Shown here: piece after piece, positions 39,976 through 41,591 of the stretch
Position numbering within the stretch: the stretch's first letter is position 1
How the letters are laid out: each line of letters begins with the position of its first letter
Assembly (NCBI GenBank): GCA_037310415.1
Contig: CP147780.1
Location: 1,280,001 to 1,344,000, forward strand
DNA from: Candidatus Atabeyarchaeum deiterrae
GTDB lineage: Archaea > Asgardarchaeota > Atabeyarchaeia > Atabeyarchaeales > Atabeyarchaeaceae
Direction of reading: 5' to 3'
DNA length: 64,000 nt
Program-made: the position numbers and the translations under genes
The notes under the pieces: model-generated
The model's input: the letters and a program-made list of their open reading frames with translations, nothing else
Told to the model about the DNA's origin: nothing
Database searches by the model: none

Positions 39976-41052
39976 TTACCCTAATTCCTTTTTCCAGGTT
40001 CTCACTTTCTCGAGAATTTGCTTTTTCTCTGATAGTGACAGTGCAAGCCCTTCATGGTACTGGAACATTTTTCTTGAGACAGAACCCATATCGAGATAAG
40101 CCTTGTTCCAGAGTCCCATCTTTCTAAACTCGTCTCTAACTTTTTCGATATTGTCTGATATGAATCTAGCTGGCAAATCAGCTTGTATCAACCTCTCAAG
40201 GAACTCAAGCATAGTCCGAGGATCTTCTTTGGGCATCTGAGGAAGCTGTTCGATTATGGCCGCTTTTCGCGGGAGGTACTCTTTTTCAACCACAGGCTCC
40301 TCAGCCTTAACAAAAGGTACAATGGGGCGACCAGTAGCGCTCGATTCAGCAAATTTCTGAACAAACTTGGATCCTTTCTCCTGATCCTCCTTGAGAAAAC
40401 GAATTATGCTAGCAGGACTCTCAGCTGATGCGCCTCCTGTTCCAGCCGCAACAGATGTCTGCACTGTACCCGTATGAGCCATAACAGGCGCTTGTCTTAT
40501 GGTAGGCGTTAAGGGCTCGACGAGTTCCTCTATCTCTCTCCAGGACTCCTTGAATTCCCTTCTTACTTTCTGATCGAATTTCTCATTCTCTTTTCTCGCC
40601 CAATCATGTATCTTGAGCCTGCCTTCAATTGGCTTGGTTGACAAGAATTCCAAAACACTTCGTATGAGATGCTTCTTCTGCGTCTGTGCTGTTACCATTC
40701 CGCCTTGATACTTGTCAACGGCAACGAAAAACGACACGTCGAAGGTTTCCTCGGGTTCATTCAACATATACTTCCTGTCTTCAACAAATCCTTTCAACAG
40801 CTGCTTAAGCAGTAACTCGTCTACGTCTCCTTGTTTTGGTATTCTGACCGAGAGCGTGGCTGAGCTTCCTGCTCTTCTCATCACTCCGTCTCTAAACTCG
40901 ATCTCCTTAGTCTCGACTTGCTCGCATTCCTTGTTCTCATCACAAGAGACACAAGGTATCCCTCGCCTCGGATATTTCTCGCAGGATACTGGTGTGACTC
41001 TGAAGAATTCGTCTAATACTTCTTCGGGAATTGTTATCTTCATCAAAAGCAT
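39976..41052 (-). CDS. ARPC4 (Arp2/3 complex subunit 4)-like domain + linker + C-terminal helical bundle
   Basis: 'SATLSVRIPKQGDVDELL...EPEETFDVSFFV...KKHLIRSVLEFL...RLKIHDWARKENEKF' is colinear with eukaryotic ARPC4 'SVRVSIAVKQADEIEKIL...KPVEGYDISFLI...KHKLVDFVIHFM...KLSVNARARIVAEEF' (recalled from memory). ATG at 41052 follows GGGGGA. Confidence 0.75.
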   Translation of the reverse strand: MLLMKITIPEEVLDEFFRVTPVSCEKYPRRGIPCVSCDENKECEQVETKEIEFRDGVMRRAGSSATLSVRIPKQGDVDELLLKQLLKGFVEDRKYMLNEPEETFDVSFFVAVDKYQGGMVTAQTQKKHLIRSVLEFLSTKPIEGRLKIHDWARKENEKFDQKVRREFKESWREIEELVEPLTPTIRQAPVMAHTGTVQTSVAAGTGGASAESPASIIRFLKEDQEKGSKFVQKFAESSATGRPIVPFVKAEEPVVEKEYLPRKAAIIEQLPQMPKEDPRTMLEFLERLIQADLPARFISDNIEKVRDEFRKMGLWNKAYLDMGSVSRKMFQYHEGLALSLSEKKQILEKVRTWKKELG

Positions 41053-41306
41053 TGTTCCCCCAATCTTTTGACCATGAGGACTCACATTGATACCCACACG
41101 TGTGGCGCGTATGTCATTTCAACAAGATCGTACAACTATATTTTTAAGTATAGCCTGTAATTTAACTATTTGCCTTACCCAGACTCAAGATGGGGAAGCA
41201 GACGGAGATTCGCAATGACGGTGAAGTGACGGCACATCAGGCTTCTTCCTTCAATGAGCAGTACAGCTTCTCGGAGTCACTAGGAATCTTAGTGAGGGCA
41301 TCCAAT

Positions 41307-41591
41307 TTGCCTAAAGTGAAGTTACGCCTATTGGGTCCGTTCTGGTTTTCGACGGGAGTAAAGGAAATGGATACTGAAGGTAATACTGTCGACGAGGTAA
41401 TATCCAAGTTCGTTCAGAAATTCAAAGACAAGATTCCAAAACCTTACCTCGTGGACAGCAGTCTGCATCTTCATTCTCTAACATTGATTCTCCTCAACGG
41501 TTCAGACATCGAATTTGTCGAAGGAAAAAGAAGTGCGAAGTTGAAAGATGGAGATGTCATAGCAATAGCGCCGCCAGTGTCAGGCGGATAG
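41307..41591 (+). CDS. MoaD/ThiS/SAMP ubiquitin-like sulfur carrier
   Basis: Beta-grasp pattern 'ILLNG.DI.......LKDGD.IAI.PPVSGG' with C-terminal GG. TTG at 41307 follows GTGAGGG (ORF track starts at 41190). Confidence 0.88.
   Translation: MPKVKLRLLGPFWFSTGVKEMDTEGNTVDEVISKFVQKFKDKIPKPYLVDSSLHLHSLTLILLNGSDIEFVEGKRSAKLKDGDVIAIAPPVSGG

Follow-up and report, generated by a model that had tools for sequence, protein, structure and literature searches.

The closed 2.76-Mb contig CP147780.1 of Candidatus Atabeyarchaeum deiterrae (genome completeness 97%) was analysed over a stretch of 64,000 nt, which covers the contig positions 1,280,001–1,344,000 and is called the window in the following. On its minus strand, the window carries a gene for a protein that combines two modules in a single polypeptide: an N-terminal domain with the predicted fold of the Arp2/3 subunit ARPC4 and a C-terminal bundle of four helices, which in structure models resembles the C-terminal domain (CTD) of Vps28, a component of ESCRT-I, one of the endosomal sorting complexes that are required for transport (ESCRT). 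In eukaryotes, ARPC4 binds to the side of the mother actin filament, and the Vps28 tail docks onto downstream components of ESCRT-II and ESCRT-III. An earlier reading of the bare sequence, referred to here as the original prediction, had likened the segment at 39976–40235, which encodes residues 288–373 and the stop codon, to the Vps28 bundle and had suggested that the protein could link actin to ESCRT.

Gene, start site and genomic setting

The open reading frame (Table 1) is probably longer than the gene itself. Since all homologues begin with MxMKITIPEE, the true start is probably the ATG at 41052 or the ATG at 41043, which would yield a protein of about 355–358 amino acids. The ESM Atlas entry for the fusion protein begins at residue 18 of the frame. 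Moreover, 12 further full-length homologues sharing 63–68% identity were found in JGI, NCBI, ENA and Logan assemblies, one of which carries an Atabeyarchaeia name. In each of them the fusion is a continuous frame with conserved linker motifs, and two further species genomes of this family contain the same frame. It can therefore be regarded as extremely improbable that the two modules were joined by an error of assembly or gene calling, all the more as the frame is uninterrupted in a closed contig; nothing was found that speaks for such an error. Thus, the fusion of an ARPC4-like domain and a tail in one polypeptide, as it had been read from the sequence, is real and conserved in homologues.

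The window genes flanking the fusion gene encode a DUF4147/MOFRL glycerate-kinase-like protein, a ThiS-like protein, an amine oxidase, an aldehyde:ferredoxin oxidoreductase, a DUF362 protein and a GH35/42 glycosidase. The ThiS/MoaD-family protein (41190–41591, plus strand) is encoded divergently to the ARPC4-like gene and has an N-terminal extension of ~55 residues; as its gene lies near that of the aldehyde:ferredoxin oxidoreductase, it may have a role related to cofactors or one like that of ubiquitin.

The ARPC4-like N-terminal domain

The fusion protein matches the Pfam family of ARPC4 (PF05856) with 16.2–18.1 bits (E = 0.002–0.008), which is below the cut-off of 22.2 bits. Among the aligned members of the N-domain family, 24 of 29 match PF05856 at E ≤0.01, the best E value being 2.3e-10, and alignable relatives clear the cut-off, for example one encoded in the genome G113 with 33.5 bits. 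The AlphaFold2 model of the domain reached a predicted local distance difference test (pLDDT) score of 85.6. When this model was used as a query for Foldseek, ranks 1–9 were all occupied by ARPC4 chains of Arp2/3 (E = 1.4e-6 to 2.2e-5, template-modelling (TM) score 0.61–0.73), which were followed by chains of the paralogue ARPC2. The family matches and the nine top-ranking chains confirm that the domain is an ARPC4 homologue with, according to the model, an ARPC4 fold, in agreement with the original prediction. The structural likeness to ARPC4 (also called p20-Arc; 1K8K chain F and related entries) extends over ~160 columns, and the blocks ..NS..LS...PE.GYD.SF.. are common to the Asgard ARPC4-like family. 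The fusion protein differs from ARPC4 in that it falls below the Pfam cut-off, carries an added cluster of four cysteines close to the N-terminus and a C-terminal extension of 180 residues, and is encoded in a genome in which ARPC2 was not detected.

The cysteine cluster (C-x9-C-x2-C-x5-C) is invariant in the 13 Atabeyarchaeia homologues and is probably a Zn knuckle. Stand-alone ARPC4-like proteins of other Asgard archaea largely keep it, with C33 and C42 being invariant and C23 nearly so. A cluster of this kind is not known from eukaryotic ARPC4.

With a profile of the N-terminal domain, homologues were identified in 36 of 400 genomes of Asgard archaea; the majority are stand-alone proteins of 160–210 amino acids. 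Among the Asgard genomes scanned, the domain is combined with the tail only in the family to which the window belongs, namely in its three species genomes (G000, G002 and G003), in each of which the fusion is the sole ARPC4-like gene. None of the stand-alone Asgard ARPC4-like proteins has the C-terminal extension. Taken together, we are confident of the two-module architecture and of the family membership of the modules.

The domain has also been joined to other partners. In the small genomes G299–G303 (1.3–1.4 Mb; loci L039–L042 and L047), it resides in frames of 383–436 amino acids, which consist of a Cys-containing N-terminal domain of ~170–210 amino acids, the ARPC4-like domain and a C-terminal CPxC zinc ribbon; this fusion is different from the one in Atabeyarchaeia. 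The stand-alone gene with 33.5 bits (L136:9309-11216 in G113, family f13) adjoins a gene for an IFT52 GIFT domain protein. The ARPC4-like gene of family f13 lies ~6 kb from vps23-vps28-vps22, with a similar spacing in G115; this was rejected as a linkage, because the gene for a family B DNA polymerase and other genes intervene.

The linker and the fold of the C-terminal bundle

The A/T/G/P-rich linker that had been noticed in front of the bundle is indeed present. It comprises ~75 residues and is flexible; its first part is variable and is followed by conserved motifs, in which the columns I231, F234, E237, D238, F249, E251, S252, G256, R257, P258 and K264 are invariant in the homologue alignment.

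For the tail, AlphaFold2 generated a model from an alignment of 14 sequences with a mean pLDDT of 85 and a predicted TM score of 0.77. The four-helix bundle that had been read by eye is real, because the model predicts four helices. A Foldseek search with this model against 350,542 PDB chains placed the chains B and A of the Xenopus Vps28-CTD (2J9W) at ranks one and two, with TM scores of 0.67–0.70, a root-mean-square deviation (rmsd) of 1.9 Å over 84 columns and a probability of 0.99–1.00, although the Foldseek E value was only 0.38. All remaining Foldseek matches had TM scores ≤0.53 and rmsd values ≥3.9 Å. With two independent aligners, the best matches in the PDB were all four solved Vps28-CTD entries (2J9W, 2J9U, 2J9V and 2G3K), which superimpose on the model with rmsd values of 1.9–2.3 Å over ~85 residues. 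Moreover, the nearest clusters in the ESM Atlas were Asgard hypothetical proteins and eukaryotic VPS28 (PF03997), the latter with a TM score of 0.67 over 84–85 residues; the outcome was the same with our own model and with the model of the protein in the Atlas. A feature search of the ESM Atlas gave no usable named match. In the models, the ranking of Vps28-CTD above other chains is clearly beyond chance, and the predicted structure shows the tail to have the fold of the Vps28 C-terminal domain. An unrelated bundle that fits better, which would have spoken against the original prediction, was looked for by structure search, and none outranked Vps28-CTD.

Table 1 Features of the fusion gene and of the related gene in the ESCRT operon (window coordinates, unless a locus is named)
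Feature	Position	Strand	Remarks
Whole open reading frame	39976..41097	-	373 codons from GTG 41097, intact; stop codon 39976-39978
ARPC4-fold N-terminal domain (predicted), residues ~19-195	40513..41043	-	Pfam, AlphaFold2, Foldseek; long C-terminal helix 138-181 included
Cys cluster C39-x9-C49-x2-C52-x5-C58 in the N-terminal domain	40924..40983	-	Homologue alignment
Interdomain linker, residues 196-269	40291..40512	-	Alignment; variable A/T/G/P-rich part, then conserved motifs
Conserved linker motifs, residues 226-264	40306..40422	-	Alignment; ESP..I[IL]RFLKED...F.ES..TGRP...K
Vps28-C-like domain according to the family profile, residues 270-373	39979..40290	-	LPxxP N-terminal extension and bundle
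Four-helix bundle proper (predicted)	39982..40221	-	AlphaFold2; helices 293-305, 310-326, 332-345, 355-372
~104-amino-acid Vps28-C-like gene	L101:1507-1821; L098:~1501-1797; L106-L135	+ (L101, L098)	Very well conserved; FELINMIEIKIDVGYILEE...KYKNKLAAFLS..E...KI..W

Sequence relationship to Vps28

Profile–profile comparisons were made with hhalign between the tail family and the tails of canonical Asgard Vps28 proteins. The alignment had a P value of 0.0086 over 43 columns (probability ~5%) and, with a merged profile, a P value of 0.0076 over 83 collinear columns; in all runs, P ranged from 0.0076 to 0.028 and the probability from 2 to 5%. Controls with a reversed Vps28 profile and with unrelated alignments gave P values of 0.06–0.68 over 1–23 columns. 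A conserved loop proline, two leucines and an invariant tryptophan of the tail family align onto the P/L/L/W columns of the Asgard Vps28 tails. The canonical Asgard Vps28 tails themselves, which served as a control, easily reach the solved eukaryotic Vps28 tails in searches with hidden Markov models (HMMs; E = 2.8e-13 and 1.7e-6). Thus, the profile signal that would connect the tail family with Vps28 is weak but above the controls.

The original prediction had compared the last helix with GDTLTETQIRELLFDLELAYKSF as the end of yeast Vps28, and exactly this string occurs in the alignment to the PDB entries 2J9V, 2J9U and 2G3K. When the tail family was aligned to the Asgard Vps28 tails and these in turn to yeast Vps28, the chained hhalign and HMM alignment paired GLALSLSEKKQILEKVRTWKKEL with GDTLTETQIRELLFDLELAYKSF, which is exactly the register that had been chosen by eye. 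Two sequences underlie the last-helix motif, which carries no statistical weight by itself. By BLASTP, no similarity was detected between the tail and the canonical Vps28 of the genome, and Pfam gave no match to the Vps28 N-terminal domain on the fusion protein. A phmmer search with the tail against 1.84 billion representatives yielded only one close homologue, two proteins of 460 amino acids that also carry this tail, and spurious matches to TPR or other repeats. The homology of the tail to the Vps28 tail rests mainly on structure, and its support from sequence is weak; weighing both, we consider true homology to be fairly probable.

The tail family in Asgard archaea

With the tail profile, members of the family were detected in 211 of 400 genomes of Asgard species. 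The strongest matches are proteins of ~460 and ~650 amino acids with a common N-terminal 'IPSWGDLLGYPTLGKY' region, and further members consist of a coiled coil, a Pro-rich linker and the tail. In the paralogous classes of ~460 and ~650 amino acids (L005–L031, Loki-type, families f19 and f20), the 'IPSWGDLLGYPTLGKY' region is without a Pfam match, and in the ~650-amino-acid class the Vps28-C-like domain is internal and followed by ~126–150 more residues. The genome of the fusion gene encodes a second Vps28-C-like tail (G000:C1:1753270-1753464; L035:1477-2610, minus strand) in a 377-amino-acid protein with coiled-coil repeats and a Pro-rich linker; the neighbouring genes, one of them for a zinc-ribbon protein, were uninformative. 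Most copies of the tail family, including that of the fusion gene, are located outside ESCRT clusters.

One group of tail-family genes has a different location. In two genomes of the Asgard family f6, a frame of ~100 amino acids, which is situated directly between an upstream vps23-vps28 fusion and vps22, matches the tail profile with E values of 1.5e-6 and 1.5e-5. This Vps28-C-like gene of ~104 amino acids occurs in all 31 genomes of the family, at most about 100 bp from the vps28 match wherever both positions are listed, and all 30 copies that were fetched match the tail profile. With hhalign, the tail family aligns with the ~104-amino-acid protein at a probability of 95.9% (E = 5.1e-9) over 84 columns, which include all four helices. 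The tail of the fusion protein is therefore homologous to a protein that is encoded inside an ESCRT-I/II operon. The link to ESCRT-II could have been broken by family f31, where a Pfam Vps28 match is absent in all 26 sampled genomes. However, it was not broken, because the tail-family proteins are kept and Vps22-like genes are present in 40 of 40 genomes.

The C-terminal half of the Pfam VPS28 model (positions 87–187) also matches, by itself, Loki-type frames of 790–824 amino acids (G167:C153:8111-8401, G173:C3:131104-131391, G266:C44:12782-13054 and others). Presumably, these frames are the multidomain Vps28-C proteins known from the literature, and they form a class separate from the tail family.

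Comparison with known proteins

Vps28-C domains have been described on many multidomain proteins of Asgard archaea, with longin, adaptin appendage, TPR, Ig-like and HTH/PCI (HTH, helix-turn-helix) partners, and as separately encoded proteins next to a complete vps28 gene (Makarova et al. 2024, mBio, PMC10936438). The multidomain proteins were proposed to contact ESCRT-II without ESCRT-I and were read as analogues of ESCRT-0 (PMC10936438). Moreover, Asgard Vps28 and Vps23 interact with Vps22 in the yeast two-hybrid system (PMC9192718). Judging from its gene position, the ~104-amino-acid gene would correspond to the separately encoded Vps28-C of Makarova et al. (2024). The main text of this study, which is based on a set of 78 genomes, mentions neither ARPC4 nor Arp2/3 nor Atabeyarchaeia (PMC10936438), and no description of an ARPC4 or Arp2 pairing with Vps28 in Asgard archaea was found in the open-access literature searched. 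The original prediction had likewise known of no description of the fusion. As the re-use of Vps28-C on other Asgard proteins has already been published, the novelty is confined to the ARPC4 partner.

Like these multidomain proteins, the fusion protein has a C-terminal four-helix Vps28-C-like bundle on a protein that does not belong to ESCRT-I; the partners listed in the main text of that study do not include ARPC4, which is the partner here. The Asgard proteins with a coiled coil, a linker and a Vps28-C-like domain have a tail of the same family as the fusion protein. At the N-terminus, however, they have a coiled coil that recalls an ESCRT-I stalk, while the fusion protein has a globular ARPC4 fold there. 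With Vps28-CTD (2J9W from Xenopus; 2J9U, 2J9V and 2G3K from yeast; the C-terminal half of PF03997), the tail shares the up-down four-helix bundle of ~85 residues, the C-terminal position behind a flexible linker and, at matching positions of the last helix, the motif L[ST]xxE/QxK/R...hydrophobic. In contrast, the sequence identity is only 5–11%, the tail has no Pfam or HMM match to Vps28, and the fusion gene is not encoded in an ESCRT-I/II cluster as is that of Asgard Vps28. A canonical Vps28 (59.9 bits against PF03997) is encoded elsewhere in the genome, and the fusion protein is therefore an accessory protein and not a Vps28 orthologue. Likewise, it cannot be an ESCRT-I subunit, because its N-terminal partner is ARPC4-like and not the helical hairpin of the Vps28 core and steadiness box.

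Proposed role and alternative explanations

The bundle would be related to the Vps28 tail, though divergent from it, and, as this tail does in eukaryotes, would dock its owner on ESCRT-II (Vps22/Vps25) or on ESCRT-III. This would anchor the ARPC4-like module where ESCRT assembles, or ESCRT to the partner of the ARPC4-like module; if the module behaves like the ARPC4 of eukaryotes, this partner would be an actin filament, bound at its side. The fusion protein would thus act like the ESCRT-0-like adaptors that have been proposed for other Asgard Vps28-C proteins. A role as an actin–ESCRT linker is therefore one that we infer from analogy at both ends. Docking of the tail on ESCRT is possible, although we regard it with some doubt. 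The explanation as a whole, that is, a two-module protein specific to Atabeyarchaeia with a divergent Vps28-tail bundle, ESCRT docking and tethering of ARPC4, is offered as a tentative one, for which the chances appear to be a little short of even.

Several observations weigh against this explanation. At the level of sequence, neither the whole protein nor the tail matches PF03997 (cut-off 24.5 bits), even at E values of up to 10, and none of 27 tail-family members does; with the tail as query, neither phmmer nor profile searches retrieved a Vps28 chain from the PDB sequences, and the hhalign probability of the tail family against Vps28 is only ~5%. Thus, the proposed likeness to Vps28-CTD holds with respect to structure, for which the Vps28 entries are the best matches in the whole PDB, but in profile searches significance was reached neither against Pfam VPS28 nor against the Vps28 sequences of solved structures. 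At the level of the genome, the fusion gene lies outside any ESCRT neighbourhood among metabolic genes, and the vps23-vps28-vps22-vps25 cluster with the canonical Vps28 is ~940 kb away. There is no Vps28-C-like open reading frame within 1.5 kb of the stand-alone Asgard ARPC4-like genes. A gene for the partner ARPC2 was not found in the genome, the best match to PF04045 being 12.1 bits inside a frame of 1126 amino acids (cut-off 27). Moreover, the literature that was found treats Asgard ARPC4-like proteins only as genomic homologues and calls their cellular function poorly understood.

The main rival to ESCRT docking takes the bundle as a generic Asgard module for interaction or oligomerisation with a partner outside ESCRT, its likeness to Vps28-C resulting from the limited geometry of up-down bundles of ~85 residues. 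We consider this rather unlikely. Such a module would be expected to lack significant sequence similarity to Vps28, and the hhalign probabilities of 2–5% agree with this; it would also account for the diversity of the N-terminal parts on which the tail family rides (coiled coils, the Loki-type proteins of 460 and 650 amino acids and ARPC4) and for the many copies, the fusion gene among them, that are located away from ESCRT clusters. However, limited geometry would not readily explain why all four Vps28-CTD entries outrank all other chains with both aligners, nor why every genome of one Asgard family carries a member of the tail family at a fixed place between vps28 and vps22. The profile alignment, weak as it is, is also full-length, collinear and above the controls, with coinciding P/L/L/W columns.

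A second alternative accepts that the tail docks on ESCRT but assumes that the ARPC4-like domain is unrelated to actin. It would instead recognise cargo or a partner or depend on Zn, and the fusion protein would be one more ESCRT-0-like adaptor, as which other Vps28-C proteins have been read (Makarova et al., PMC10936438). The missing ARPC2, the Asgard-type cysteine cluster and the one small-genome lineage in which the domain is joined to different, unrelated domains and to a zinc ribbon at the C-terminus are all in line with this assumption. The fold match is specific, however, as the nine best Foldseek matches are ARPC4 and the next ones its paralogue ARPC2, and the genome contains a highly conserved actin (one gene, 454 bits). 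We judge this second alternative as a whole to be unlikely.

Implications

Asgard archaea possess a lone homologue of an Arp2/3 subunit and many proteins with a Vps28-like tail, and the fusion offers a concrete and testable hypothesis for both. In the whole lineage of the window, it takes the place of a stand-alone ARPC4-like gene. It could also be read as a 'Rosetta stone', according to which Asgard ARPC4-like proteins in general work together with ESCRT, the coupling of an Arp2/3-type actin-binding module to ESCRT predates eukaryotes and the two partners have been joined in Atabeyarchaeia. This far-reaching reading appears unlikely at present. If the tail binds no ESCRT component, the Vps28-C-like bundles would be general-purpose connectors, and caution would be advisable when eukaryote-like functions are inferred from folds. 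If the proposed role is true, actin cytoskeleton and membrane remodelling would be connected in the archaea that are most closely related to eukaryotes.

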